From NCBI GenBank assembly GCA_000004985.1, contig GG738870.1: DNA of 64,000 nucleotides. One strand, 5' to 3'. The notes beneath the pieces were generated by a model. It ran no database searches, had not been told where the DNA came from, and worked only from the letters and a program-made list of their open reading frames with translations. Positions 3,555-64,000 of this stretch are shown here, in pieces. Position 1 is the first letter of the stretch, and every line of letters begins with the position of its first letter. The DNA comes from Naegleria gruberi (taxonomy: Eukaryota). The translations under genes and the position numbers were made by a program.

Positions 3555-6500
3555 ATGAAAAACCTCTGCGCATTGCCACTGCTACTAATATTATGCTTTC
3601 AAACAGTATTGCTATTCTTCCATTCATCATGCATTCAGCCAGTCAGAGGTGAAACATGTTTTGGAATTGCATCGAGCAGTTCAAAAACTTGTTCTGGAAG
3701 AGGTGTTTGCACACCAGATAATTTGTGCACATGTAATGTGGATTCATCATTGGGTTCTTCCTCTCCCTATTCTGGATTGAACTGTGAAGTAGATTTGTGT
3801 TTTCCTAATGCAATTATTTCTTATAATTGCAATGGAAATGGACAGTGTGAAAATGGTGTTTGTAAATGTAAGGAGGGAACTTCTGGATTCATGTGCCATT
3901 TGAATAGTACCAAATTGATGTGTTTTGGTGTGAGTGGAGGTGATTCAAGAGTTTGTTCTGGTCATGGAAAATGTTTGGACACGAACGTGTGCTCATGCCA
4001 AGATGGTTATACAGGAACTGAATGTCAAATTCCACTATGTTATGGTATTCCATCAACTTTGACATCAAGCGTTTGCTCTGGTAAAGGTACATGCAAGGGA
4101 CAAGATACATGCGAATGTCAATCAGGTTTTTCTGGAGCTAATTGTGAAGTACTTGGTTCAGTATCTTCGCAAGGCTCATCTATTGCAATTCCAGCATCAT
4201 TTTGTGGATCAATAATTGATAGTGATAACAGAACATGTAATGGAAGAGGAAAATGTATTGCCAATGACACATGTCTATGTATGGAAGGTTACAATGACCA
4301 TGACATGTGTCAGAGTACATTCTGCTTTTCAATTCCACAATATGATGCACTGGTTTGCAGTGGACATGGCAACTGCATCGATTACAATACATGTAATTGT
4401 ACTTCTTCTGGAAATTCTTCATTGAACTTTATTGGAAATGAATGTGAAATAGTTCAATGTTTAGGAAGAAATTTCCATTTTTACAATAGCACAGATTCAA
4501 ATGTTTGCAATGGAAATGGTTTCTGTTCCTCTACCAATGATGGTTGCATTTGTAAGGATGGTTATTACGGAGATGCATGTGAACAATTTTCCTGTTTTGG
4601 TATTTCATCAACAAGTGAAATTTCTTGTTCTGGAAATGGACAATGTTTAGATATTGACACTTGCTCATGCTACTCAAATTTACAACAAGGTTATTGGAGT
4701 GGAGAAAATTGTGATATCTGTGATGAAAATTACTCTGGAACGCATTGTAACGAAACAGTAACTTGTCAATCTGAAACTTTTTGTAATCTTTTAGGATCTT
4801 GCTTTAACAATACATGTCAATGTGAAGAACAATACTCGGGACCATCCTGTAGTTTGTGTCAGGGTGGTTTCTATGGTCCATTCTGTAACCATAGCTGTTC
4901 CAGAGTGGACACATGTCATGGACATGGAGAATGTTCAAGAGATGGAATTTTCTGTGAATGTGATCAATCTAATGAGGATGGTTATTGGGATGATTTGTCA
5001 ATGTGTCAAAAATGTAAGAATGGATATTTTGGATCAAGCTGTTTATTGAGAATCGGTGAAAGTTTCGGTTTAAATTCATTGGGAAATGAAATTGTAATTC
5101 CATTAGTGATTCGTCCAAATAATTTGCAGAATTTACTGAATTGCTCTTTGATATTGGTTTTGGAAAGTAGAAGAATGCTTGGATCCTTCCCTGAATGCTG
5201 GATTGATTCGAATAATATGTTGAGAATTACCATTCCAAAAGATTCGACATTTTCTCCAATTCTTAATTCTGATAGAATTGTTATAATTCCAAGTGGTTTT
5301 GAAAATGGTATTCAGAAAAACGAAACCATTTCCCTTCCTTTTGATTCTATCAATACGAAACTTGTCCTTCCAGTTGCCAAAATCTATTCGAATTCAACTT
5401 ATATTCTTCCAAATAGTGATTTAACTTTAATTGGTTCAAATTTACTAAGAATTGAAAGAGAAAGAAATCTGACATTTGAATGGTCTTTGAAGAGTAGTGA
5501 TTCTGATTTTGCCTTATTTCAATCGAATTTGAATTCAAGAATTTCGAGTGGAAAATTTGGTCAACTGACAATTACAAAATCTGACATTCCATCAACTGTT
5601 ACTACATTCCAGATCCAATTGATTGTTAGAAATCAAATTAATAATATTTCCAGTAATCCTACTCATATGACATTCACTGTATTGAAATCTACAACTTTAC
5701 AACAAGTTTACAATGGAGCTTACAATTTGAAATTCAATTTACCAACTCAAATTCTTTATGTACATAATGACATGTTACCATACAAGTTAAAATACTCTCT
5801 ATTACAAGATAATTCACCTATTTCACTTCCAAACTCTAGTTATTCCATTCAATTTTCAATTAGTCCAACACCTTCGGATAACACTTTCGTTACTTTACAG
5901 AATTCGAATGGTATTTTAACAATTTCCTCAGCGTATAACTATGACAATCAGAATAATGTTTATGAAGGATTCGATGGTCAAGTGTTTAACTCTTCCAAGT
6001 TTTATCAAATTATTGGAACTGTCACTCATGTGCCAAGTGGAAAAATTGTCACTCAAAAATCAATCAAATCATTCTTTATTAACAGAAATAGTGGAGCGAG
6101 ACCTGATTTTGATACTGGTAGTCTAAATCCTCTTCCAACACAAGCAGGTCCCGCAGCCATAACCATCCTAACCAATGGACACACTTTTGATTCAGTTGAC
6201 TGGGATTGTTTCGAATGGTCTGGAGTTGGTGGAAAGTGCAGTAATGAATGGATGGCAGCAATTGCAGCATCCAAAGATTCCAACATCCTAAACGTTCCAC
6301 TCGACACTTTTTTCCTTGCTAAGAATCCTCTTTACGTCAGAGCTAAGGTTGTGATTGCTGGCATTCCCTATTATCTCCAAAGCTCAGTAACCCCATCTCA
6401 GGGATTTGGTTTCAAGACTTTGAATGGAGCAACTTTGTACAGTATCATTGCTGGAATGCAGTTGGCCAAAATTGATCGAACCAATTCTCACACAGCTGTC

Positions 6501-7202
6501 TATTCTTGGATGGATTACCAATTTAAGGATACTGTGAATGGAGCCACACTTACTTATGAAGTTAGAGATCAAGATAATAACTTATTAACGCCAACATCGT
6601 CATATATTACACTGGATACTAATCAGAGAAAGTTTACAATTTCTGGTTCAAATATTCCAACAAGTGTTAAAGTATTGAAAATCTCAGTTCGTTTTACAGT
6701 TCCTAATTTTACCAATTTTAAATATAGAGCTTATCTTTATTTGGTTCCAGATGCAATTACCCAACCTAGTCCAACATCAGTGTTGAATTATACTGTTTTG
6801 GAAAATGGATTGAGAAAGTATACGTTAAATTATCAATTGACCAAAACATATGTTGCTGCCATGTCATCCATTTCATTAAAAATTGGAAGTCATAAGATTA
6901 GTATTGCCAATGTCGGTCCAAGTCAACTTGTGAAATTTATACTTCCACCCCTCTTGGATGCCAGCTCAATAATTGCTGATGTGACATATGTCGATAATAG
7001 ATATGTCGGTGGTGCTAGCTCCATTACACAACAATTCACATTACATTCTCTACCTGCCGAAAGTCAATCATCTGATTCTTTTATTCGTTCCATGCAAGAA
7101 TCCATTCGAACAGATGCCACAACTTATTTAGGTACTAATTTTGTAATGTTAATAATGAATATTAGATATTTGGGTGAGGAATATGATTTCCCTACCATGT
7201 AA
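3555..7202 (+). CDS. Secreted EGF/tenascin-type repeat protein (about 17 Cys-rich EGF-like modules plus a large Cys-poor C-terminal domain)
   Basis: Track ORF 3339 begins on TTG. ATG at 3555 gives the signal-peptide-like MKNLCALPLLLILCFQTVLLFF. Repeated CSGHGKC..C.C..GYTG..C modules fill the first ~500 aa. Confidence 0.8.
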   Translation: MKNLCALPLLLILCFQTVLLFFHSSCIQPVRGETCFGIASSSSKTCSGRGVCTPDNLCTCNVDSSLGSSSPYSGLNCEVDLCFPNAIISYNCNGNGQCENGVCKCKEGTSGFMCHLNSTKLMCFGVSGGDSRVCSGHGKCLDTNVCSCQDGYTGTECQIPLCYGIPSTLTSSVCSGKGTCKGQDTCECQSGFSGANCEVLGSVSSQGSSIAIPASFCGSIIDSDNRTCNGRGKCIANDTCLCMEGYNDHDMCQSTFCFSIPQYDALVCSGHGNCIDYNTCNCTSSGNSSLNFIGNECEIVQCLGRNFHFYNSTDSNVCNGNGFCSSTNDGCICKDGYYGDACEQFSCFGISSTSEISCSGNGQCLDIDTCSCYSNLQQGYWSGENCDICDENYSGTHCNETVTCQSETFCNLLGSCFNNTCQCEEQYSGPSCSLCQGGFYGPFCNHSCSRVDTCHGHGECSRDGIFCECDQSNEDGYWDDLSMCQKCKNGYFGSSCLLRIGESFGLNSLGNEIVIPLVIRPNNLQNLLNCSLILVLESRRMLGSFPECWIDSNNMLRITIPKDSTFSPILNSDRIVIIPSGFENGIQKNETISLPFDSINTKLVLPVAKIYSNSTYILPNSDLTLIGSNLLRIERERNLTFEWSLKSSDSDFALFQSNLNSRISSGKFGQLTITKSDIPSTVTTFQIQLIVRNQINNISSNPTHMTFTVLKSTTLQQVYNGAYNLKFNLPTQILYVHNDMLPYKLKYSLLQDNSPISLPNSSYSIQFSISPTPSDNTFVTLQNSNGILTISSAYNYDNQNNVYEGFDGQVFNSSKFYQIIGTVTHVPSGKIVTQKSIKSFFINRNSGARPDFDTGSLNPLPTQAGPAAITILTNGHTFDSVDWDCFEWSGVGGKCSNEWMAAIAASKDSNILNVPLDTFFLAKNPLYVRAKVVIAGIPYYLQSSVTPSQGFGFKTLNGATLYSIIAGMQLAKIDRTNSHTAVYSWMDYQFKDTVNGATLTYEVRDQDNNLLTPTSSYITLDTNQRKFTISGSNIPTSVKVLKISVRFTVPNFTNFKYRAYLYLVPDAITQPSPTSVLNYTVLENGLRKYTLNYQLTKTYVAAMSSISLKIGSHKISIANVGPSQLVKFILPPLLDASSIIADVTYVDNRYVGGASSITQQFTLHSLPAESQSSDSFIRSMQESIRTDATTYLGTNFVMLIMNIRYLGEEYDFPTM

Positions 7203-7796
7203 AAATATCATCAACTACATACCTTTAAATCCTCATGAGGATATGAAACAAATTCATTCTTTGGTGTTTCTTCCGAATAAATCAAAATTATGGAAATGTT
7301 CAGGTGTTTGTTTACAACATCAACATCAGTCAACCAAGATTTCTACCTCTACATTATCAGATGGGTGTTCAATCCATGTACTATTCAGCTCCTGTATACG
7401 AAAGAAAGATTGAAGTGATGAATATATCAAAAATCAACACCATTCATCTATGTTTACAGAGATTAGAAATATTTATAACAGCTTGACAGATACAGTTCAG
7501 TGGTTGAATGAGTTTTAAACAATTTCTTGGCTGAGAGCATTTCTTAATCATTTCCTCAGAAATGCTCTCAGCCAAGAAACGATTATTCGAAAGTTTAACC
7601 AACTATCACTCAACCATTGGCATTACCACCAAATCCTTTCTCTCCTTTAACTCAATCCATCCTGCACATTGTCACCTCGCACATTTGCTTACAAAATATT
7701 TAAATTCCACCAAAATCCAGAACATCTGCAACAATAAAAAATTCAAAACTTGTTCGATAGAAGAAAAGTATTCGGAAAATTAAAACACATTAAACA

Positions 7797-8498
7797 ATGC
7801 ATCGCTACGTTCTACTCTTGAGAGGAATCAATGTCGGAGGAAGTAAATCCATCAAAATGGCTGATTTGAAAAAGACGCTGAGTAATATTAAATTTAAGCC
7901 TTCTGATGATAATAATAAGTCATCATCAAATAATTCATCAAATACTTCATCATTGAATAATTCTAATAATTCTGATGATTCTGCTGGTGCGGTTGATAAT
8001 ATTCAAAAATTGCAAAATATTAAAAGTTATTTAGCGAGTGGCAATGTAATTTTCGATTTGAATTTAAAATTGCTTTCCAATGATGAGAGAAGACTGGAGG
8101 AGGAAATTACCAATATTCTGATGAAGGAATTTACCTTTGATGTACCAGTAATGATTAGACATGCCACAGAATTTCATCAAATTATTGCCAATAATCCATT
8201 CTACTCGGTGAAGGAGAAGAAGATTGATGATTTGTACATTTGCCTGTTGATTTCAAAACCACAAGGTGAATTGGTGGAGAACATGATGAAGGATAATAAG
8301 GATTCCTATTCACCTGATGAATTTGAAATTGTGGATTCAACAGATGCTGCTGATGCTACTTGTTGCATTTACCTTCGATTGAAAAGTGGTGCTGCAAAAA
8401 CTAAATTGACCAATAACATGTTGGAGAAAAAGTTCAAAGTGAATGCAACAAGTAGGAACTGGAAAACAATGTTGGAATTGAAGAAGTTACTACAGTAA
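7797..8498 (+). CDS. DUF1697 family protein (bacterial-type) with a host-like N/S-rich insert
   Basis: N-terminus MHRYVLLLRGINVGGSKSIKMADLKKTL and later ASGNVIFD match the DUF1697 signature. ATG at 7797. Residues ~35-70 are low-complexity SSNNSSNTSSLNNSNN. Confidence 0.75.
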   Translation: MHRYVLLLRGINVGGSKSIKMADLKKTLSNIKFKPSDDNNKSSSNNSSNTSSLNNSNNSDDSAGAVDNIQKLQNIKSYLASGNVIFDLNLKLLSNDERRLEEEITNILMKEFTFDVPVMIRHATEFHQIIANNPFYSVKEKKIDDLYICLLISKPQGELVENMMKDNKDSYSPDEFEIVDSTDAADATCCIYLRLKSGAAKTKLTNNMLEKKFKVNATSRNWKTMLELKKLLQ

Positions 8499-44686: not shown

Positions 44687-45052
44687 NNNNNNNNNNNNNN
44701 NNNNNNNNNNNNNNNNNNNNNNNNNNNNNNNNNNNNNNNNNNNNNNNNNNNNNNNNNNNNNNNNNNNNNNNNNNNNNNNNNNNNNNNNNNNNNNNNNNNN
44801 NNNNNNNNNNNNNNNNNNNNNNNNNNNNNNNNNNNNNNNNNNNNNNNNNNNNNNNNNNNNNNNNNNNNNNNNNNNNNNNNNNNNNNNNNNNNNNNNNNNN
44901 NNNNNNNNNNNNNNNNNNNNNNNNNNNNNNNNNNNNNNNNNNNNNNNNNNNNNNNNNNNNNNNNNNNNNNNNNNNNNNNNNNNNNNNNNNNNNNNNNNNN
45001 NNNNNNNNNNNNNNNNNNNNNNNNNNNNNNNNNNNNNNNNNNNNNNNNNNNN
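44687..45052. other. Assembly gap (run of N, 366 nt)
   Basis: Contiguous n characters; ORFs reported across it are artefacts. Confidence 0.99.
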
Positions 45053-47326: not shown

Positions 47327-48778
47327 ATGAAAAGAAAAGAAACAACTTCTCCCTCACAACACGATGACGTACAAGAATGCAAAAAGGCAAAACATGAATC
47401 AACCACGACAAGTAGTACTTCCCATTTCTTCTCTACAATTTCCAATGATGAATTCCTATGTATTTTATACTCTTTAGAATCGGAGAGTATTCTCTCACTC
47501 TCCCGAACATGTAAATCGATGCAACATTTGATCAAGAATAATGTACTTGAATATTTGTGTAAATATTCCATCATCAATCAAGATGGTACGAACCACATTG
47601 ATAATGATACAACAATAGCTATTGATCATGTTAGGGAGGATGAGAAAATTCTGAAAGCATTGAAGAATAGAGAATTATTTAGAGTTGATGATAAGAATTA
47701 TGAATCTGTTTTGGATATTATTGAGGATATTTGTGATAGGAATGGGACTTTGAGTGATTTTACTCATCATTTGAAATTTGATAGAAAGGTTACTTTTGAA
47801 GAAGTATTTGACTTGATGGATTGTCGTCTAATGAAGCATTCCTATAGAAAGGAATATTCAAATAATCAAGAGGATATTCTTGGAGATTTCTATCATGAGG
47901 AAATGATTGTCAATTGCGTTTTAATTGAAGAATTACTCTATGAATTCGATCCCTACTCATTTGATGAGGAAGAATGGATGAGAGAACCAATTGAAGATAA
48001 TTCTAAAAGTTTTCAATTGGTGAAAATTATTGGAATACCTATTGGGTATACGCTTAAAGAGTTAACACTTGCTAATGTTTCATTTAATGAATTGTTTTTA
48101 ATTCTTTCTAAATGTAATCAATTAGAAAGTTTGATAATCTCTGATTTTTATTTATCAATGAGACGTTACAAGGAAGAAGATGAAGAAGAATCAACCAAAA
48201 TTACAGAGGAATATGAAGAACATTGTTTTTTCATTCCTACTTTGAAATCAATGAAGAAATTTGAATTGAGATACTCTCGCTTACTTCCACGTGAATCAAC
48301 ATTATTGAACATCTTGAAATGTTGCCCAAATTTAGAGACTGTTTACTTTTGCTTCCTTACCCGATTAGATAAGTATTTATTACAAAAGATTCCACAATAT
48401 TGTACCAATCTTACAAATGTAACTTTCCTGTCAGATAGTGGAAGCACTCCTTTAGAAAGCATTATAACAGATTCTCAAGTATATGAATTCATGAAATCTC
48501 AACCAAAATTGAAATATTTGAAAATCAGTCCTTGCATCAACATTAATGGGTCAATTTTTGCAAATATTGGAGAATTTCAAAAGTTGGAATATTTAGAACT
48601 TGATGTACATGCCTATAATTCGTATAGAATTCCTCAAATTGAAGAGATTGTATTTGGTGGAGGTGAAGGAATCTTACCTAATCTCAAACATCTCAATGTA
48701 GGGAAGTTAGAAATTGATGAAGATGCCTTGTACAAATTTGCACCAAATTTAATTTCTTTCGAGTGTGATGAGTGGTAA
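47327..48778 (+). CDS. F-box/LRR-like protein
   Basis: ATG at 47327. N-terminal F-box-like DEFLCILYSLESESILSLSRTCKSMQHLIKNNVLEYL. C-terminal leucine-rich repeats (LKELTLANVSFNELFLILSKCNQLESLIISD...). Architecture similar to the 36402 and 43551 genes. Confidence 0.65.
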   Translation: MKRKETTSPSQHDDVQECKKAKHESTTTSSTSHFFSTISNDEFLCILYSLESESILSLSRTCKSMQHLIKNNVLEYLCKYSIINQDGTNHIDNDTTIAIDHVREDEKILKALKNRELFRVDDKNYESVLDIIEDICDRNGTLSDFTHHLKFDRKVTFEEVFDLMDCRLMKHSYRKEYSNNQEDILGDFYHEEMIVNCVLIEELLYEFDPYSFDEEEWMREPIEDNSKSFQLVKIIGIPIGYTLKELTLANVSFNELFLILSKCNQLESLIISDFYLSMRRYKEEDEEESTKITEEYEEHCFFIPTLKSMKKFELRYSRLLPRESTLLNILKCCPNLETVYFCFLTRLDKYLLQKIPQYCTNLTNVTFLSDSGSTPLESIITDSQVYEFMKSQPKLKYLKISPCININGSIFANIGEFQKLEYLELDVHAYNSYRIPQIEEIVFGGGEGILPNLKHLNVGKLEIDEDALYKFAPNLISFECDEW

Positions 48779-49202
48779 TTGTCTATCTTGCCTTATAATA
48801 TTTTGTAAAGTATTTTCCTCTTCCGAAAAAACAACTTAATAATATTTAATTTCTCTTCCTTGTCCACCAATTGGTGGTTATTATTAATATATTCAATTTT
48901 AATTTTCTACATCATAATGTTCACATATTAAAATGCAAACTCCAACTTGTTCACTTCATATCCATCAATGCACTTTTATCAATGAACATTGCCTTGTTCA
49001 TTCTTCTTTCTCAATTTTCAATATCGTGAAAAGCTAGCTGCAACTTTGAAAAGTCTCGTTTTTGACTGAATGATGATAAACAAGCTCGGAAAAGTGTTGT
49101 CGAGGTCACCACAGAGAGATAAAATTTACAACGAAAATTTTTTAAATAAATATTAAAATTTATTTCCTTGCTGAAAAAAAAATTCAACAACAAATCATCA
49201 CA

Positions 49203-49682
49203 ATGGATATTAACGAATTCAAGAGAAAGTACTCCAACGAAAGCGACACCAAGGCTGTTATGGAATGGGCTTTTGAAAAGATTGCTGCTGCTCCAGAAAC
49301 TTATTCTTTCTGGTTGGCTGAATACAATCAACCTGATCTTTTGACTGGTCCTGCTTGGATGCAAAACAACTTGGTTGAAGGTTACTTCAGAAACATTGAA
49401 GGTTTGAAGAAGAATTGTTTCGCTTCTGCTTTGGTCCTCACTAACGACGAAGGTGCTCAAAGAATCTCCATGGTCTGGTTGGTCCCAACCCAAACTGTTC
49501 CAAAGGAATTCACTTCTGATGATATTGCTGGATCCAAGATTGGTGATGGTTTCAACTTGACTCAATTGAAGCCTGCTGAATCTGAAGAAGATAAGACCAC
49601 GATTATCAACTACATGATCTGGAATGAAGATAAGGGTGCTTTCGGCGGTTACACTTATGCTTCTGGTAAGATCTTCAAGTAA
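49203..49682 (+). CDS. Stand-alone elongation factor 1-gamma C-terminal domain protein
   Basis: INEFKRKYSNES, SFWLAEY, KNCFASALVLTN, ISMVWLVP and the terminal GKIFK align with the EF1G C-domain. Strong bias to C-ending/optimal codons (ttc, aag, aac, tac, acc, gct, ggt). No GST-domain exon upstream. The 237-aa minus-strand ORF 49011..49724 is its antisense artefact. Confidence 0.8.
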   Translation: MDINEFKRKYSNESDTKAVMEWAFEKIAAAPETYSFWLAEYNQPDLLTGPAWMQNNLVEGYFRNIEGLKKNCFASALVLTNDEGAQRISMVWLVPTQTVPKEFTSDDIAGSKIGDGFNLTQLKPAESEEDKTTIINYMIWNEDKGAFGGYTYASGKIFK

Positions 49683-49840
49683 ACTATTTGAATTTTTCTT
49701 CCAACATGATTGTATTATTATCAAATTGTTCTTTCTTATTATTAATATTTAAAAAACAATACAATTACCCTCTGGCTTACTTATCGGAATGAACAATTTA
49801 AAATTAATTATTCACAATTTTAATATCATCATATTAATAC

Positions 49841-51229
49841 TTATAATATTTCCAACAATTTGATAAAGAAACGTTCCTCCATCATGATACCAATGTGATG
49901 AGCACCCGGTAACACTGTAGTTTCAATCTTCTCCTCCTGCTTAAATTGTGAACACATCTCCAAGCAATAATCAGGCAAAGTATCATCACCACGTTCCCAT
50001 CTCGAAGCTTGAATATCTGCAGAGGTCAACTCTTCCATTCTCTTTGGACCAGTATAGGAATATTGAGTTGGAGTCCAATTATTGGAACCATAGATACATT
50101 GTGTTGGAACACCTGGAGCTGCAAATTTAATATCGAGAATGGATTGAGATTCTTGCATGAATAATTCCCAACCATTGGTCATTGAAGCATCTTTCATGAA
50201 TTGACCATAACTTTCAACTGTTGCAAAATAGTTGGCTTTCTGATTGGTTTGATTATTGGTATATTGGAACATTGGATAATTGGTGAATGGGGTTTTGAGT
50301 GGATACATGTATGAAGGACTGCCAAATGTACGAACCATCTTTTTGAATTGTTCTCTACTAAGGAAGAATAATCCATAAGTATCGCCTGTCATGTGAAGAA
50401 TTGGACTTTGAATTTCACCATCGTATGATCCTGAAACACTAATGAATTGTTTGATGAATTTTTGTTTCCATTCCTTAGAAACATGAGTGGCAAGAAAGAG
50501 TTGAGTGAATGGAGCTCCCAAGCTATGTCCAAGTAAGCTCACTTGAGTTCCATTGTTGAGATAGTAGGTATCTTCAACGAGTTTTTGAAGAATATCATAA
50601 TCTCCTCCAGTATTATTCATTCTTTTTGATTTCCACTCAATTGGACCAGTTCTCCAATCATAGGTCATTGCTCTCAATGTTTTTCCTCCAATATATCCAC
50701 CATGTTTAATTAAATAGGAAGTTAACAATTCCATATAGACTGCCTGATTAATAAATTCATAATTAGTAATGTAATTCACTCCACTCAGACCACCAACATC
50801 CTTTCCAGTGATGGAAACACCTGCATCTAATGGATGTAATTTTCTCGGTTGTCCCCTCAAATCCAATGTCAAATCATGCACTGTACATTCCTCTGTTACA
50901 TGTGGAATTAATTCATTCAAATTGGCCCACACTTGAAATGGCTCACTCGTTGTACTTTCACACCAAAAGTGTGGTTCCTTTGCATTGGTTCTTTGTGCAT
51001 TGAGAGCTGATCCACCAAATCCTCCCAATAGAATCAATGGACTCAATGTTGTGGAATTGTTTGTTGAGATGGCTCTTCTTGGATTTGGTGGTCCCTTGAA
51101 GGTCTTCCAGATTTCACTTGCTCGTTGACGAGTAATGACTGGTATTGGCAAAGAGTGAACTGTTAAAGATAAACAAATAATGACAACAAAGAGTGCCGTA
51201 AACAATTGTGCAATCAGATTGCTAGACAT
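49841..51229 (-). CDS. LCAT-like phospholipase/acyltransferase paralog (intronless)
   Basis: ATG at 51229 after an a-run, then a signal peptide. SPLILLGGFGGSALN, GHSLGAP, CIYGSNNWTPTQ and GAHHIGIM motifs. A single 462-aa ORF. Confidence 0.85.
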   Translation of the reverse strand: MSSNLIAQLFTALFVVIICLSLTVHSLPIPVITRQRASEIWKTFKGPPNPRRAISTNNSTTLSPLILLGGFGGSALNAQRTNAKEPHFWCESTTSEPFQVWANLNELIPHVTEECTVHDLTLDLRGQPRKLHPLDAGVSITGKDVGGLSGVNYITNYEFINQAVYMELLTSYLIKHGGYIGGKTLRAMTYDWRTGPIEWKSKRMNNTGGDYDILQKLVEDTYYLNNGTQVSLLGHSLGAPFTQLFLATHVSKEWKQKFIKQFISVSGSYDGEIQSPILHMTGDTYGLFFLSREQFKKMVRTFGSPSYMYPLKTPFTNYPMFQYTNNQTNQKANYFATVESYGQFMKDASMTNGWELFMQESQSILDIKFAAPGVPTQCIYGSNNWTPTQYSYTGPKRMEELTSADIQASRWERGDDTLPDYCLEMCSQFKQEEKIETTVLPGAHHIGIMMEERFFIKLLEIL

Positions 51230-51512: not shown

Positions 51513-52046
51513 TTACATTGACTGAGTACGTTCATGTCTTGGAATAAAATCAAATTCAGTATCCACTTCCTTGACATTGTATTTTGGAAAACCGAATTGA
51601 GGTGGGTCCAAAACTTCACCTGGTTCAACAGCTCCTTGTTGTTGAGCCATCATTGTCTTTGAAACCAAAATGTTAACACCTTCAATCATACCCAAGAAAA
51701 TACCACCAAATAGAGAACTTCTCATGACAGCTTTCCAGCCACCTCTCAAAGCCAAAGCACCACCTGTTAAAGCTCCCGAAGCTACTGAATTAATAAAATC
51801 TTCCTTTCCTCTATAATATAAGAAACAACATTCAAATGATGAAAACAATCCAGACCACATGGCAAAGTTACCACCAAGCACTGGTCCTTTAGCTTTTAAA
51901 GTTTGAATGGCTCCTGCAAAACGTTCTCCACGTGGAGCATTTCTGGCACCTTTACCGAAATGCCATATCGATCCCATAACACCACCGAGGGCATAACCAG
52001 TTCCCAAGTCATCATAAATACGGTGTGGACAAGGTTGCTTTTCCAT
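51513..52046 (-). CDS. tim17: Mitochondrial inner-membrane translocase subunit Tim17
   Basis: QPCPHRIYDDLGTGYALGGVMGSIW, GPVLGGNFAMWSGLFS and YRGKEDFINSVASGALTGG match the Tim17/Tim23 family. ATG at 52046. Confidence 0.9.
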   Translation of the reverse strand: MEKQPCPHRIYDDLGTGYALGGVMGSIWHFGKGARNAPRGERFAGAIQTLKAKGPVLGGNFAMWSGLFSSFECCFLYYRGKEDFINSVASGALTGGALALRGGWKAVMRSSLFGGIFLGMIEGVNILVSKTMMAQQQGAVEPGEVLDPPQFGFPKYNVKEVDTEFDFIPRHERTQSM

Positions 52047-52356: not shown

Positions 52357-55300
52357 TTACAAAAGTAAGTTGACATTCTTGGACATTTTGACCAATCTCT
52401 TTACAGAAGGAATGACATCCTCAATTCGTTTAACATTCAAGCCAATGCAAAGCTCGTTGATGAGACTTTGGAACTTTGGGAAGATTCGTACATATTTCTC
52501 CAATTGAGAAACAATGGTTTCACATTCTTCCACAATTTGGTGGGTAAATTGAACATTAAGTGTCCTTTTCAGTTTTGAAATTACTTCACGTTCTTCGTTG
52601 GCTTCATGATTGTTACCAAATACCTTAGTTTGTTTTTTCAATTCAACAATGGCAGCCTTCATCTTAAAGTAGAGAGGGCTTTGTTCAGTCTCTTCTGCCG
52701 TGACCAATTCCTTCTTTAACTTTTCATATAATCTTCTGTACCATATGATATCCAAATAGAGTCCATCCAAATCAATTACCTTTTCTCCATCGAGCAAGAA
52801 ATAGCCAAACTTCTTATCGCCACTATAATTTGTAACATTGATGAGTGAAAAGATGAAAGAGTACATTTGAGCATTGTGTTCGAGAATGCTTCTAACCTTA
52901 GGTATTACATCACTAATGCTCTTGACTCTCAAAATGTCATCTCTGAGAGCTGTCAAAATTGCCTTGTATCTAGTTTCGAGTTTCTTGGCTAGAGGAGAGC
53001 TGATAAACCGTTCTTCCTTATCATCGATATCGAGAGAAATTCTTTCATCATTATTGGAAACAAAGTAAAAGTTTGGATCATCAAAGCCAACAGTCTTGTG
53101 GCGAAGTGGATGAGGTGTCCAATTATCATCACTATTCTTCGAAGGCTTGATTGGACTGGCAACATCTACACCTCTTGATCCTCTCTTTCTTGGAGTAAGA
53201 TCTCCATCACTCTCTGAATCATCATCTCCATTCATCCATCTTTGAATTGACATTGGAAGTTGATCATTAACTTGTCTGGAGGCATGAATCTTCTTGGATT
53301 TGAGTTCTCCCTCCAGAGATTTAATTCTAGATTCTGTTGTATCAACCAATTCTTTCAATTTCTTCATCAAGTCGTTTTCTGATTTTGGTATTTCATCAGA
53401 TTGACCAACAACTTTGCAGAAATCTTTCAATCTAGCTTGTAACTTTTCAAGAATCTTTTCTTCTCTTGAATTCATCAAGTTGGAGAGGGATGTTGAGAGC
53501 AGTGAAGATTGAATATCCAAAAACTTGGACAATTGCTCTTCTCTCATAAAAACCAATTCAGCCAATTTGGAAACATCACCGGAGCTATTATTTGACTCAT
53601 TAATAGCCTTGAACATCTTTGATCTAATGGTATTCTTATCTTCCTTGTAGAGAGATTCGATTTGGAGGAGGCATTGCTTGAGTAAGTTCTTTTCATTTTG
53701 CTTATCGCTCTGTAAATCAATACGCCTAACGGCATCTGAGAGGGAGGAAAGTTGTCTTTCTTGTTCTTGTACATATTCCTTGGTTGATTCGATGGCAAAT
53801 TCTTGTTGAGTGAGGAGACGATCGTTCGAATCGCTTGTAATTGTAGACACAAATGAGCGAGCACGTGAAACTTCTCCTTCGTACATCTTTTCGAGATCCT
53901 TAACATTGAAATCTCTAGTATCTTCAGACATAGTCAAAGTTGAGACTTGAGACATGAAATGAACATCCATTCTATCAATGGCATTTGAGAATGCCTTCTT
54001 TGCTTTTGGAACCTTTGAGACAGAACTATTTGGTTTAAGTCTCAGTTTTCTTACATTGGTCCAGTATTCCATTTGAAGAATCTTTTTCATTTGGGTATGC
54101 TTCTTCTTTAAACTTTCAATCATGTCTTCATGTTTATCGGAAGGAACAAAAACATTTTGAAGGAATTGTACAATCTTTTCGTCACTATCTTGAAGTGTTT
54201 CAGAGTTGACCTTGTTGAGAAGTTCCATTTGTTCATCGAATGTATTTTGGTTAATAATGGATTGATCGAGACCAGCTCTATCATCTTCACTGTTGTTAGT
54301 TGAAATACTGTCATTGAATTCTCTTCTGAGACTCTTTGAAGGTTCTTCAGTGACCAAGGATTTGGTAATATTTCTCACCTTACCACAGAGTTGTCTATTT
54401 TGCTCTACCAGAGTGGTGATTTCTCCTTCCAAGTGGACACAATATTCCTTTAGACCCTTCATATCTTCAGCAGTATGGATATAGTTTGATTCCTCTGAAT
54501 GCTCAACAACCTTCTTTAAACGATCAAGTTCTTTGAAGAAGATATCTCTAATGTATCTCACATCTGATTCGTCTCCACTTGAAAATCTTAAAGAACTCTT
54601 CAAGCTTTCCAATGAATTGAGGTGATCCTTGTGAATCTTCATCATTTGCTTCTTTGTGTTACTTTCATTCTTTTCAAAGAACTTGCTTTGAGTATTGTCA
54701 GAGACGAGCTTTTTGGTCAATTGTTGATTCTCAGATAATAATTTTTCATATTGAGCTTCCAAAATTGACTTTTGTCTCCTCTCACCAGACACTTGATCCT
54801 TCAATTCTCTGGATTGTCTTTCCATTTCCGAGTTGAGATCATTCATTTGCTCTTGGAAGTCCTCTGTTGCTCTCTTGAGGTCATCCTCAAACTTGAGTTG
54901 TTGTACTCTCTTAGAGTATTCATGTTGCTCCTTCATGTTTTGAATATCACCTTCATATTTGACACTTTCAATCTTCAAAGCAGCCTTCTCCTTTTCGAAT
55001 GATTCCTTGAGCTTCATGACTGTAATATCATTTTCATGCTTGATACCATCAATAATTTTAGAATACTTGACTTCTATGGCATCAATTTCTCTTTGGTGTG
55101 CTTGTTTGAGAATTTCATTGCTATCTCTGTGCTTTTCAACATCATTTGCAACTTTTGACTTTTCCAATTCCTTGTGCATGATTTCTTCATCTCTTTCCTT
55201 GATTGCTTGTTCTAATTTTTGAATGGTGGAGGTCTTTTCCTTAATGGACTTTTCCTTTTCTTCAAGTAAAAGTTCCATGTGTTTCTTTTGAGTATTCAAC

Positions 55301-57006
55301 TCCTTCTCAAAGTTAGACATGAGTTGTTTTCTTTCATGTTCAAAGGATTGCTTTTCAGTTTCCCTCTTTTCGACTTCTAGTTCTATTAACTTGTTGAAAT
55401 CATTAACAATTTTGGTCTTTTCATCTTCCTTCTCTGATGAAGACTTGAGTTGCAGAATTTCTGTTTGTTTTTCGTAACGAGACTTGAGGGTATTGATTTC
55501 TTCTTGGTGAAGAGTTTTGATTTCCTTCTTTTCAGCTTCAAATTCTTGGAGGAGAAGTTGCTTTGTTTTTTCAAAGGATGATTTCAAGAGGTCAATTTCT
55601 CCCTTGAAGGTATCACTATTATTGTTCAGCTCATTGTTATACTTGTAAACGAGACGTTCCTTTTCCTTGATAAGATCTTCCTTTTCCTTCATGGAGGCAG
55701 TAATCTTTTCTATGAGGGTTTCTTTCTCCTTTGCATGTTTATCGAGGAGGGTGTCCTTCTCTTCATTGAACTTTTCTCTGTCAATCCTCATCCTTTCAAC
55801 GTACTGTTCAATTTCTTTTCTATGCTTTTCAACGAGGGTTTCCATATCAGCCTTATGTCTTTCAATCATTCCATTCTTATCACTGATGGCATCTTGCATA
55901 ATCTTGATCTTTTCTGCATTGAGTTGCTCCAAAACAGAATGCTTATCAACAGAGGATTTTTCAAACAATTGCTTTCTTTCTTCATTTTGTTTTTCTAGCA
56001 ATTGCTTCTTTTCTTCATTGAATTTCTGAGACAGTTCCATCTTTTCAGAGTTAAAGCTTTGAATCATTTGCTTCTTTTCTTCTTGGAGTCCATCAATTTC
56101 ATCCTGTAACATTTTGATAACATTACTATTCTCTACTTTGATGTTGGAGAGTCTTTTATCATAGTCAGACTTTAGTTCCACTTTTTCAATATCAAATGAT
56201 TTTTTAGCAGTATTGAACTTGAGTTCAAAATCAGATTGTTGTGAAGTTAATTTGTTTTCCAAATCAAGTTTTAGCACATTGAGTTTGTCTATTTCCTTTT
56301 TCAATTGATTTACTTGTCCTAGTTTGCTACTTAGTTCGCTTCTTTCCTTTTCTTCCAATTCATCAATTCTTTCAGAAAGGGAGTTATTTTCATTGGAGAG
56401 ATCATTCACTGTCTTTTGATAGCCAGCGACTTGATCTTGAAGCCTTCTGATATTATCCTTGAGAATTTGATTTTCAGAATCGGTGGTTCCCATCATGGTT
56501 TTGAGCTGTCTGTATTCCAATTCAAGTCTCTCATAATCTTGATTTTTAATTTGGAATTCTTCCTGGAGCTCGCTTAGTTGTTTCTCAATTAGAGTATTTC
56601 TTTCCTTTAACTTGATGAATTGAGTATTTTGTTTTGGAGGTAAATTCTGCATTTGTGATGTAATAAAATTCAATTGGTTTTGTATTGCGCTCATACTACT
56701 ATCCCCACTCACAGAAGAGTCGGCAAAGGAGCTTGTCAAGGAGCTAGCCTCTAACCCTCTTCTTGCTGATCTTATTGGTGATGTTCCGACACTGATTAAA
56801 TAATAGTCCAATAACAATCGTGATGAAAAAACCTACCCATTTTGTAATGATTTGATGGTTTCCTTTGCTCTCTCCAATAAGAGATTGGTTTGTTGAAGTC
56901 TTTCCTCTCCACTTTGTAAAGCCTTTTTAAGTTGTTCCTTATCCAACGACTCGTCCATAGAACGTTCCGAGTCGGTTGAATCAAATTCTGAGAAATTCAT
57001 AGACAT
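52357..57006 (-). CDS. Giant coiled-coil protein (~1535 aa), two exons: 56837..57006 and 52357..56791
   Basis: ATG at 57006 with in-frame stops just upstream. Exon 1 ends AATGG|gtaggt. Acceptor aatcag| gives a 45-nt intron with phase continuity into the 1486-aa track ORF. About 1000 aa of heptad-rich E/K/L sequence, then a ~400-aa non-coiled C-terminal domain. Confidence 0.7.
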
Positions 57007-57251: not shown

Positions 57252-58052
57252 TTATCTGTGTTGATTAGATGCGTATGGATCATTGGCATGAGTGAGAACA
57301 TCCTTATTAGCAAAGTATGGATCAGCAAAGTCAACATTGAAATTACTATCATAGTATTCGGTTTGCCAACTTTGATCATTCACTTCATCACCATAACCAT
57401 CTCTTCCTTCTCTATTGACCTTTCTCTTTCCTTGAGAGAGTTCATCAACAAGATTGTCGAAATATTGTAAATGTTCCTCTTTTCTCAAAGTTGGAAGCCA
57501 AAACTTGATTAAAGAGTCACGAGCATTTTGCAAATTATTGTACTTGAACATTTCAACAACCATATGATTCAAAAAGTGTGGTTTGTAATGTTCGAAACCA
57601 GTAACACCCAAACACTTCATAATACGAGTAATTCTCAAATAATTGTGGAAGGAACTATTCAAATGACTATATCTCTTCTTGTATGTGACTGGATTTCTAC
57701 TGATCTTTCCACTGACTTCATCTTCCAAAACTAAACCATAAAAATCGAGCATTAATCTATAGGATTGAATGATACGAGCCTTGACAGCAGCATCGGATCT
57801 CAACAAGGAGGCTTCATGTTTAGTGAGTGGTTGAGAGGAAGCATTCATTCCTTGTAATCTAATTGGGAACAAGTATTGAATATAGGCGTGATGTTCTTCC
57901 AACAAATCCCAATCACCAAACCAATTCTTGTGAATATTTTCAATTAAATCTCCTTGTGGACGAGAACGAAGTTTGTTAATGTAAAAATTGTAATTATCGA
58001 GGCTTGTTGTATCATCTTCTGGCAAAGCAGAGGAACCAAAGAAACGGAACAT
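57252..58052 (-). CDS. OGFr-like conserved-domain protein
   Basis: WFGDWDLLEEHHAYIQYLFPI, SYRLMLDFYGLVLED, TYKKRYSHLN and HNYLRITRIMKCLG match the opioid-growth-factor-receptor N-terminal conserved region. The track ORF starts on TTG at 58283 with a hydrophobic leader. First ATG at 58052 (aaaaaagaaATG). Confidence 0.7.
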   Translation of the reverse strand: MFRFFGSSALPEDDTTSLDNYNFYINKLRSRPQGDLIENIHKNWFGDWDLLEEHHAYIQYLFPIRLQGMNASSQPLTKHEASLLRSDAAVKARIIQSYRLMLDFYGLVLEDEVSGKISRNPVTYKKRYSHLNSSFHNYLRITRIMKCLGVTGFEHYKPHFLNHMVVEMFKYNNLQNARDSLIKFWLPTLRKEEHLQYFDNLVDELSQGKRKVNREGRDGYGDEVNDQSWQTEYYDSNFNVDFADPYFANKDVLTHANDPYASNQHR

Positions 58053-61199: not shown

Positions 61200-64000
61200 T
61201 TATTGGTCTGCAGTGGTGAGTTTGTTGGATTGTTGAATAATTTTCCAAAAGTAAAGTCCACATGAGAGAAGAGCCATGCATGGTGTTGATGAATGTAATA
61301 TGCCAGTTTTTGGAAGAGCAATTTTGAGTTCGTAATGTTCGCTGGTGAGATCTAGGGTTTGACTCAAAGAGGAGAGCTTCTTGGTGAAGAGAGATACTTT
61401 AAGTATGGTTATTTCGAGCATTTGATTGTGATGTTCATAAGTGTAAATTTGCTTTTCTAATTTTCTGACAACATTAACAAGTGATAGCTCGGAATGATGG
61501 GTCAATTGTTGAGGTGAATCTATTCTGATTATCCACTGATCTCTATTGAGGGAGTTCACCAACCTGCTGATACTGTGATCTTCTGGAAGAAATCTAGAAT
61601 GATTAATGTAGAATCTCATATCACTTGTTTTTCCAATAAATGTTGTAGCCATTACTCTGGTACGACGGCTCAATATTCCATCTGGTTTCAATTTCAAATT
61701 TTCATCCAATTTCACCTTGTATTCAACTGAGTTTTTCCTTTCAACATTTTCAATCTCACATACGTTATATTCTGTAAATTCTTGCTTGGTACATCCTGCA
61801 AGCTCTTTCAATATTAAAGCAATGGCTTCTGAATCTACAAGGGTTAGGAAAGAATCTGAGGGTGCCTTCTTTTCTTGTTTCTTCTTTATAATTTCTGGAG
61901 TTTCATTCTGGCAACCTACTTTACTTTTTGATTTGCTAGAGCCACGTTTGTTAGGTTGTAAATAATCAATTAAAGGCCATTCTTTCTCAAAATCATTCGA
62001 AGTCTCAACTGGTTTCTTTTCTTCTTTGTATTTTTTGACCTCCTCGATACTGTGGAAATGATTCTTTTTCATTAGAGAGTTGTAGTGTTTCGAATCTTGT
62101 GGAATAATCTCAGAAAATATTGACTTTTCAATATTAATCAAATAATAGGTTCCAAATTTGATAGAGTATGTAAAATGATTTGGGTCCAAATCAATTGCTA
62201 ACGTTTTTTCTAATTGTGTTAACAAATTTTGATAAAAATCATACATTGGAAGAACTTCTTCCTTGTAAACCTTCAATTTTGGTTGGTGTTTGGTTATTGG
62301 TTCAAGCACATGTTTTGGATTACATTTTCCTAAATATGGCTTGAACTCAATTGGACTGTCTAAAGAATCTCCCTCATAAATTGCCAAAGTAGAGCCCTCT
62401 AAAAACAATCTATGATTGTTGGCTCTGAAATATTTACAATTTGCATTCCAAAGAGCTAGCTTTCGCTTCAGTCTTGAGCTGATTCCATGTTCTCCAGTGG
62501 CATTAATTATATAATTACCATTTTTCATTTCAAAAAGATTGGTAATTTTACAATTGCAACTCTTTTCCAGCTCAGACTTCAGGACCGTCTCTATCATTGA
62601 GTTTCCAAGTACTTTTCGTAGAAGGCTCGGTACATAAACTTGTGATTCCTCCATCTCTTCAATGCTTAATTTGGTAAAGTCGTGAAGAAGGAAAAGATTA
62701 AGTATACAAGAATCAAGTAAATCCCTGGCATGGCTTACTTGCTCAATAGTCAAAATGACAGCGGTGATTTTCCCATCCAGATTATCCACGAACTCCATAT
62801 TTTCTTTGAATATTAAACGCTTCAAAAACAATACAATCAGCTCGGTTTCATGTTGGAATTCGCTATTCAAACATTTACCTAGAATTTGCTTCATAAACAC
62901 AGAGTCTTTCTCCATTTCACCATCAAATGCTTGCTGCTCAGTTGGTGGACTTTCTTGTACAAGGTAGTTCTTTTCTAGGCAAAATGTCACAATTCTCCAT
63001 GTCAATTGATAAGTTTTGATGTGAGGGCATATTTTCTTGAGAAGATCAATCAATACTTTAAGGAGGACAATTAATTTAGGTTTTTGTTTCAAATAGAGTC
63101 TCAAGTGGTGCTTTTTTCTCAATCCTCTACTGGAATTGGTAAAATCAATCGATTCTATAAACGGAAGATCGGTGACCTTTGCAAATATCCTGAACATTGG
63201 TACTGATTTTTGCCAATCAGTAGCACTGGATCCAAACTCAGATGACAGTACTGAACAAACAGGTGGACAATTTTCATCTCCTTTTTCTGCTTTGAAATCG
63301 AAAAAGGTGTCACAATCCGAACTAAATGAGTTATGAAGGAGGACTGGTAAAGAACCAAACATGTGAATTCTATATTCTTGATTAGTTTTGTACTTAAGTT
63401 GCTCCAATCTTTTTTCCATGATTTCAAGCTGTTCCAAATTCATATGCTCTACAAAGCTATTGAGAGATTTGGCCAGATTCTTATAAATATCCAACTTGTT
63501 GAATTCTGTAATTCTTCTTGAAGGAATAGTCAATGAGAAAATATTGGCAATTGGTAAGTTTTGAATGGCTAGTTTACAATTTTCCTCTCTTGCAATTTCT
63601 CTGAATTGTTCTATTAAATGTGTGAATTCTTTTCGTTCAATCCCATTCCCAACAAACAGATCAAACAATGTACAATAATGAACTTGTTTCAAATATTCAA
63701 TAATTTGCCAAAATCTTCTATTCCATTCATTAACCTTTTCATCTTGGATAATAAATTCTGGTTCTTTAAATTCTGATGGAATGCCAGATTTAATGCTTGT
63801 GCACTTCTCATAGATTCGTCCAATAATGGAGTTTGATTTGATAGAAATTGATCCACGTTCCATAAAATCTGGATAAATAATATCTTTAAACCAGTTTGGT
63901 AGTGAAATTTGCTTTCCATTTTTTGGGAAATCAACAGCTTTTACAAACAAGTCGGCCAATTCTAGTGCTCTGTCAGAGTCAGCACCTTCAGAATCAACTA
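61200..64000 (-). CDS. Large hypothetical protein, 5' partial (open beyond the right window edge)
   Basis: The 919-aa track ORF starts on TTG at 63959. The same frame stays open to position 64000 (…VDSEGADSDRALE-LADLFVK), so the N-terminus lies outside the window. No confident domain. Confidence 0.55.
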   Translation of the reverse strand, partial: VDSEGADSDRALELADLFVKAVDFPKNGKQISLPNWFKDIIYPDFMERGSISIKSNSIIGRIYEKCTSIKSGIPSEFKEPEFIIQDEKVNEWNRRFWQIIEYLKQVHYCTLFDLFVGNGIERKEFTHLIEQFREIAREENCKLAIQNLPIANIFSLTIPSRRITEFNKLDIYKNLAKSLNSFVEHMNLEQLEIMEKRLEQLKYKTNQEYRIHMFGSLPVLLHNSFSSDCDTFFDFKAEKGDENCPPVCSVLSSEFGSSATDWQKSVPMFRIFAKVTDLPFIESIDFTNSSRGLRKKHHLRLYLKQKPKLIVLLKVLIDLLKKICPHIKTYQLTWRIVTFCLEKNYLVQESPPTEQQAFDGEMEKDSVFMKQILGKCLNSEFQHETELIVLFLKRLIFKENMEFVDNLDGKITAVILTIEQVSHARDLLDSCILNLFLLHDFTKLSIEEMEESQVYVPSLLRKVLGNSMIETVLKSELEKSCNCKITNLFEMKNGNYIINATGEHGISSRLKRKLALWNANCKYFRANNHRLFLEGSTLAIYEGDSLDSPIEFKPYLGKCNPKHVLEPITKHQPKLKVYKEEVLPMYDFYQNLLTQLEKTLAIDLDPNHFTYSIKFGTYYLINIEKSIFSEIIPQDSKHYNSLMKKNHFHSIEEVKKYKEEKKPVETSNDFEKEWPLIDYLQPNKRGSSKSKSKVGCQNETPEIIKKKQEKKAPSDSFLTLVDSEAIALILKELAGCTKQEFTEYNVCEIENVERKNSVEYKVKLDENLKLKPDGILSRRTRVMATTFIGKTSDMRFYINHSRFLPEDHSISRLVNSLNRDQWIIRIDSPQQLTHHSELSLVNVVRKLEKQIYTYEHHNQMLEITILKVSLFTKKLSSLSQTLDLTSEHYELKIALPKTGILHSSTPCMALLSCGLYFWKIIQQSNKLTTADQ

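Follow-up and report, generated by a model that had tools for sequence, protein, structure and literature searches.

A stand-alone eEF1B-gamma C-domain gene, conserved and under selection, in Naegleria gruberi and its relatives

Results

A gene for the EF1G C-domain alone

The window analysed here, a stretch of 64,000 nucleotides from Naegleria gruberi contig GG738870.1 (assembly GCA_000004985.1), carries on its plus strand an intron-less coding sequence at 49203..49682, which runs unbroken from ATG to TAA and encodes a stand-alone eEF1B-gamma C-domain of 159 amino acids. The product is 100% identical to a protein already in public databases under the label 'predicted protein' (NAEGRDRAFT_67954; XP_002676701.1, EFC43957.1 and UniProt D2VGF1; catalogue entry P0001), where both the gene and its Pfam domain are annotated, and our analysis confirms that model. 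A sequence-only reading of this DNA had extended the locus to 49724, but that position is the end of an open reading frame (ORF) on the opposite strand and the gene itself ends at 49682.

The same reading had assigned the product to elongation factor 1-gamma, which is borne out by a match to the Pfam EF1G profile (PF00647) that scores 65.5 bits (E = 4.7e-18), where the gathering cut-off is 23.3. Profile positions 14-104 of 107 are covered by residues 1-95. The further claim that the protein aligns end to end with the conserved C-domain holds at the C terminus, where both share GKIFK, and very nearly at the N terminus, where the first ~13 profile positions, representing the segment PLxxLP..F.LD, are missing. 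A sequence search of the PDB returned a single entry, the human eEF1B-gamma C-domain 1PBU, with residues 3-159 of the query aligned to 15-162 of the chain and both ending in GKIFK; residue 1 of the N. gruberi protein falls opposite position 13 of the human construct, which has 162 residues. An AlphaFold2 model predicted from nine family members (mean pLDDT, 87.3; pTM, 0.85) was matched by Foldseek to chain A of the human EF1 complex (9a9s_A; TM, 0.83) and to 1pbu (TM, 0.82), with the next match at E = 0.03 and only two PDB entries, 1PBU and 9A9S, having this fold.

The core motifs FKRxYSN, M..NL..G, F.S, W and GK.FK are all present in the N. gruberi protein and the N-terminal P..L.P motif is absent. 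At the 51 columns that are at least 70% conserved among 65 canonical C-domain sequences, the protein has the same residue at 27 and a similar one at 32, and several canonical residues are replaced in the stand-alone clade (for example, FQRL by FRNI and RG by PT). Sequence score, core motifs and predicted fold together place the protein within the EF1G C-domain family.

The upstream neighbour on the same strand (47327-48778) had been called an F-box gene. An F-box/LRR identity is plausible and is unrelated to EF1G, but every Pfam match is below threshold (F-box, 15.8 bits against a cut-off of 20.5 at residues 40-73; LRR_At5g56370, 21.3 bits against 27). About 4 kb upstream of the locus, 366 N at 44687-45052 mark an assembly gap. 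Two long minus-strand ORFs elsewhere in the window, at 52357-56694 (1445 residues) and 61200-63863 (887 residues), have no Pfam match at E ≤ 0.001.

Codon usage

Codon bias in the gene is the most extreme in the window. Its effective number of codons (ENC, 28.8) is the lowest of the 32 window ORFs of at least 140 residues (34.4-50.3 for the others), its GC3 of 0.45 is the highest of the 32, and its PC1 score, on RSCU axes drawn from 27 other ORFs, lies farthest to the side of TTG, ACT, AGA, GCT and GGT. The gene is an extreme case along the general axis of bias in the window and does not define a separate axis of its own. Several amino acids are encoded by one codon throughout, including alanine (GCT, 14/14), lysine (AAG, 13/13), glutamate (GAA, 14/14) and arginine (AGA, 3/3), while leucine (TTG, 8/10), glycine (GGT, 9/11) and phenylalanine (TTC, 8/9) are nearly as uniform. 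The strong bias seen in the sequence-only reading is confirmed by these measures, but its description as a preference for C-ending codons fits only Phe, Asn and Tyr; T-ending codons dominate (third positions, T62/C39/G32/A26), being favoured for Ala, Gly, Thr and Ser, with G preferred for Lys and Leu and A for Glu and Gln.

This codon bias is our basis for inferring that the gene is probably highly expressed. The N. gruberi and Naegleria fowleri genes use the same codon at 84 of the 103 positions with identical residues, and the codon preferences of the short-form orthologues vary by genome. The second-strongest bias and second-highest PC1 score in the window belong to a minus-strand gene at 57252-58052, which encodes 266 residues with the conserved region of the opioid growth factor receptor (OGFr_N; E = 1e-54) and has an ENC of 34.4.

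Orthologues, selection and gene order

Short proteins of the same kind are found in N. fowleri (FDP41_012664; 157 residues, two introns), where the product was automatically named 'EF-1-gamma C-terminal domain-containing protein', in N. lovaniensis (C9374_009457; 157 residues), in Willaertia magna (ABK040_001614; 156 residues, one intron) and in Acrasis kona (KAL0487251.1; 167 residues, three introns at other positions), where it is named 'elongation factor 1-gamma'. Further relatives occur in Eukaryota sp. GEM-RC1 (KAL0232877.1; 145 residues) and on metagenomic contigs of 150-428 kb (161-174 residues), giving a range of 145-174 residues over the listed relatives. Identity to the N. gruberi protein is 60-71% within Naegleria and Willaertia and 35-38% to Acrasis and GEM-RC1. 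The Naegleria, Willaertia and GEM-RC1 forms begin with a common MDIN.FKR, whereas the Acrasis and metagenomic forms have an N-terminal extension of 10-25 residues, including an F.LD motif, which is absent from N. gruberi. A phase-0 intron placed directly after codon 7 is common to N. fowleri and Willaertia and has been lost in N. gruberi.

Pairwise dN/dS values were 0.40 between N. gruberi and N. fowleri, 0.16 between N. gruberi and Willaertia and 0.10 between N. fowleri and Willaertia, and the short EF1G C-domain gene is under purifying selection. An 824-nt metagenome contig (L007; ENA ERZ929261, ERR1078381) is 98.4% identical to the window, with all 480 of 480 coding nucleotides identical and all six differences falling in the flanks. 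The locus is a real, functional gene and not a fragment. Sequences identical or nearly identical to N. gruberi occur in environmental assemblies, as shown by L007 and by the protein P0279, and may come from Naegleria in the environment or from contamination.

Gene order around the locus is partly conserved. The EF1G C-domain gene adjoins Tim17 in Willaertia, and in N. gruberi only an LCAT-family gene lies between the two; the partial microsynteny involves window positions 49841-51229 and 51513-52046 (both minus strand) together with 6650-7210 of related locus L002, 4810-5495 of L001 and 8506-8831 of L008. In N. fowleri and Willaertia the immediate upstream neighbour is a Tctex-1 gene, 275-500 nt away and on the opposite strand; in GEM-RC1, which is unclassified, a Tctex-1 gene lies 2 kb downstream of the EF1G C-domain gene, and tblastn found no Tctex-1 in the 64-kb window. 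The placement of Tctex-1 hints at a relationship between GEM-RC1 and Heterolobosea.

When 1.84 billion representative proteins were searched exhaustively with HMMER, the best non-heterolobosean match had 72 bits and 34% identity. A neighbour-joining tree of 80 C-domains groups the listed short proteins apart from 65 full-length EF1Gs, with long branches and with the full-length EF1G of Giardia adjoining the short-form cluster; monophyly of the stand-alone clade is, on these sequences, provisional. Short EF1G matches scattered among the full-length sequences (P0021, P0031, P0033, P0073, P0065 and others) were considered as further stand-alone lineages and rejected as likely fragments, being found on contigs of ~1-2.5 kb or in records with no contig. 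Two predicted proteins of one EukProt species, of 1852 and 3374 residues (P0007, gene12021-8275_t; P0148, gene12019-8274_t), also match the EF1G C-domain, the former with four reported matched stretches, and may be either gene models fused in error or a true repeat architecture.

The long antisense ORF

On the minus strand, a 237-residue ORF (49011..49724) covers the entire gene. It had been read as lacking any domain and as an artefact of the sense-strand codons, and our results agree on both counts. The ORF is codon-aligned with the sense frame, such that its stops would be sense TTA, CTA and TCA; the sense gene contains none of these codons, where codon usage in the other ORFs, each with 2.3-7.9 of them per 100 codons, would predict 5.65, and the antisense frame is consequently open over the gene. 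The ORF also contains no in-frame ATG, because the sense protein has no histidine, and in the ORF list it begins at a TTG, which counts as a start in the bacterial table. We found no Pfam match. The equivalent frame is not conserved, with 12 stops in Willaertia, 9 in Acrasis and 13 in a metagenomic relative, interruption by introns in N. fowleri, and shortening to 187 residues in L007 by a 1-nt deletion beside the A-run. Beyond the coding sequence the frame stays open for 63 codons into the AT-rich upstream flank (49011-49202), as in only 0.16% of mononucleotide shuffles, a continuation that we regard as chance and that is certainly not conserved coding sequence. The antisense ORF is best described as a non-coding by-product of sense codon bias, and annotators should not call it.

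It is extremely improbable either that the locus is a decaying fragment or retro-copy, as the loss of introns found in its relatives might suggest, or that the minus-strand ORF is the real gene, as its length and rare upstream continuation might suggest, given on the one hand an intact sense ORF of constant length in more than six taxa, dN/dS of 0.10-0.40, the strongest codon bias in the window and a coding sequence identical in two strains whose flanks differ, and on the other an antisense frame with no ATG, no domain, 9-13 stops in three more distant relatives and a frameshift in L007.

Absence of a GST-like half

Two marks of canonical eEF1B-gamma, GST_N and GST_C on the same polypeptide and a Lys-rich disordered linker, are lacking from the N. 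gruberi protein, in which nothing precedes the C-domain. In tblastn searches with the first 240 residues of each of 21 full-length EF1Gs, the best E values were 0.24 in the 64-kb window and 0.12 over all loci searched. A profile HMM of 13 EF1G N-domains, applied without filters to 3,492 six-frame pieces, reached at best E = 0.22 overall and 1.9 in the window, with no GST domain in any frame; as a positive control, a C-domain HMM recovered every orthologue. Overall, no GST-like sequence was found in any frame of the 49 kb upstream of the N. gruberi gene, nor within 6-8 kb of the orthologues at five related loci, GEM-RC1 among them. One 20-residue, 8.7-bit match to the GST profile at the start of the GEM-RC1 gene lies on the wrong strand and was rejected as chance. 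The earlier view of the gene as stand-alone is supported by the absence of a GST domain from the window in both searches and by the conservation of its start codon and the following MDINEFK.

The 5' end of the gene

As had been noticed from the sequence, the gene starts at its own ATG after an A-run (GA(9), 49173-49182). The start itself is common to N. gruberi, N. fowleri and Willaertia (ATG GAT AT(T/C) AAC GAA TTC AAG, encoding MDINEFK), and the same frame is closed by a stop 21 codons before it. Among the same three species, the only conserved upstream stretch is a plus-strand block, AATAAA...TT.G.T.GAAAAAAAA, at 49146..49182, which is a putative core promoter or transcription-start region; nothing farther upstream can be aligned. 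An element of the type (T)TGCT(G/C)GAAAAAAAA occurs 20-35 nt upstream of the ATG in the three genera (L001, ~5940-5990; L002, ~5940-5975), and in Acrasis an A-run abuts the ATG (L006, ~7980-8000). This element is a candidate initiator or core-promoter motif of Naegleria.

Additional information on the 5' end comes from P0279, a 172-residue protein in the same 90% cluster (source 'merc', ERR1712137) that reads MG, then AEKKIQQQIIT, then the full protein. Since AEKKIQQQIIT exactly matches the in-frame translation of genomic 49170-49202, P0279 follows the genome without a break as far as the conserved block; where it reads MG, the genome encodes FL. We take the 'merc' source to be RNA-derived and MG (ATGGG.) to be the 3' end of the SMART template-switch oligo, and from this reading we tentatively infer a transcript start near 49169, which would give a 5' UTR of ~34 nt, colinear with the genome, on the plus strand at 49169..49202.

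These observations bear on whether the ORF could be only the final exon of a canonical EF1G, its upstream GST exons having been missed by annotation. The Pfam match begins at profile position 14, with a few N-terminal residues missing, and introns are possible in Naegleria genes, two being present in the N. fowleri orthologue. Nonetheless, the 49 kb upstream and the 6-8 kb upstream in four other species are free of GST-like sequence, the reading frame is closed by the stop 21 codons upstream, no AG acceptor immediately precedes the ATG, which is conserved in three genera, and P0279 carries a translated 5' UTR that is colinear with the genome. The upstream neighbours are also unrelated, being on the same strand in N. 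gruberi and represented by the opposite-strand Tctex-1 gene in N. fowleri and Willaertia. We consider a missed upstream half very unlikely and already largely refuted.

N. gruberi and N. fowleri have the same first ~56 coding nucleotides (MDINEFKRKYSNESDTKAV, 49203-49258), from which Willaertia differs by three synonymous changes (compared segments, L001 6001-6021 and 6197-6231; L002 6001-6021 and 6076-6110), in contrast to the overall protein identity of 60-71%. This could be due to codon bias combined with conserved residues, or the start of the mRNA could be under some additional constraint.

Discussion

In our judgement the locus is very probably a complete, independently transcribed gene whose whole product is the EF1G C-domain with neither GST-like domain nor linker, a short form that is ancestral at least to the heteroloboseans sampled (Naegleria, Willaertia and Acrasis), is kept under purifying selection with codon bias such as an abundant protein would have, and would act as a free, elongation-linked factor. 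The advance is modest: the form without a GST domain is no mis-annotation but an architecture that is conserved, under selection and probably abundant across Heterolobosea. A literature search found no paper on the NAEGRDRAFT_67954 locus, its architecture, Naegleria EF-1-gamma or EF1G, or GEM-RC1, and a clade-wide stand-alone EF1G C-domain architecture appears to be undescribed.

The odds are roughly even on whether these amoebae have no gamma-derived protein other than the short form or also encode a canonical EF1G. One possibility, to which we give a little under an even chance, is that Heterolobosea discarded the GST-like half altogether and retained only the C-domain, as a free protein that is abundant and under selection. 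The other, also a serious contender though we would not bet on it, is that the short form is a truncated, sub- or neo-functionalised paralogue with a side role, encoded beside a full-length EF1G elsewhere in heterolobosean genomes that assembles eEF1B normally. A paralogue would be consistent with the divergence of the protein from its best non-heterolobosean match (72 bits, 34% identity) and with its altered conserved residues, which are typical of a duplicate under relaxed or shifted constraint. Against a paralogue, no heterolobosean protein is present among the 97 matches to the profile of 13 EF1G N-domains, that is, to the EF1B-gamma-class GST half, in a word-indexed, non-exhaustive search that sampled a collection of 5.8 billion proteins; word-indexed searches of this kind also returned no canonical EF1G, although many score above 50 bits in the exhaustive HMMER search. 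Furthermore, the annotators of Acrasis kona gave the name 'elongation factor 1-gamma' to its 167-residue form, and the extreme codon bias is expected of a main, abundant form, not of a side copy. If the GST-like half was indeed discarded, the C-domain would do something important by itself, with no need of a tether to eEF1B-alpha or eEF1B-beta, and Naegleria would offer a natural separation of function through which to find this domain's partner and role.

eEF1B-gamma is usually described as a scaffold, with its GST-like half assembling the nucleotide-exchange complex, and we know of no agreed function for the conserved C-domain, although its structure was solved in 2003. In the human protein, the GST-like N-domain alone builds the eEF1B complex, residues 228-437 (linker and C-domain) bind neither eEF1B-alpha nor eEF1B-beta, and hydrogen-deuterium exchange (HDX) protection of the C-domain is unchanged on complex formation (PMC9458455). 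Sensing of glutathione as GSSG has likewise been assigned to the GST-N domain of eEF1B-gamma (preprint, PMC12632765). Lacking the GST-like half, the heterolobosean protein would perform neither canonical eEF1B scaffolding nor redox sensing; such scaffolding would be impossible for it because, in human, docking of eEF1B-alpha and -beta is a property of the N-domain alone and the C-domain binds neither. Its most likely role would be that of a free, abundant cytosolic factor tied to translation elongation, with an autonomous C-domain activity exerted through the retained conserved core (FKRxYSN, NLxxG, FxS and GKIFK). Judging from the conserved residues that are replaced in this divergent clade, which is 34-39% identical to canonical C-domains, the binding partner may differ from the canonical one.

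A lineage that has the C-domain alone, under purifying selection and with codon bias of the type associated with abundance, argues for an autonomous function of this domain. Naegleria offers a simple handle on the C-domain, free of interference from the GST scaffold.

Compared with canonical eEF1B-gamma, represented by human EEF1G and by Tef3/Tef4 in yeast, the N. gruberi protein shares the PF00647 family, the predicted alpha/beta fold and a sequence that can be aligned from FKRKYSN to GKIFK. It differs in being without GST_N/GST_C, the Lys-rich linker and the first ~13 Pfam residues, in its 31-39% identity to canonical C-domains and in its separate clustering with other short proteins. The glutathione-binding site of the canonical protein (PMC12632765) is also missing. 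The opposite half is found in Phytophthora, where PPTG_02396 (229 residues) consists of the EF1B-gamma-class GST half only, with no EF1G C-domain, and shows that the two halves of EF1G can be separate genes in eukaryotes.
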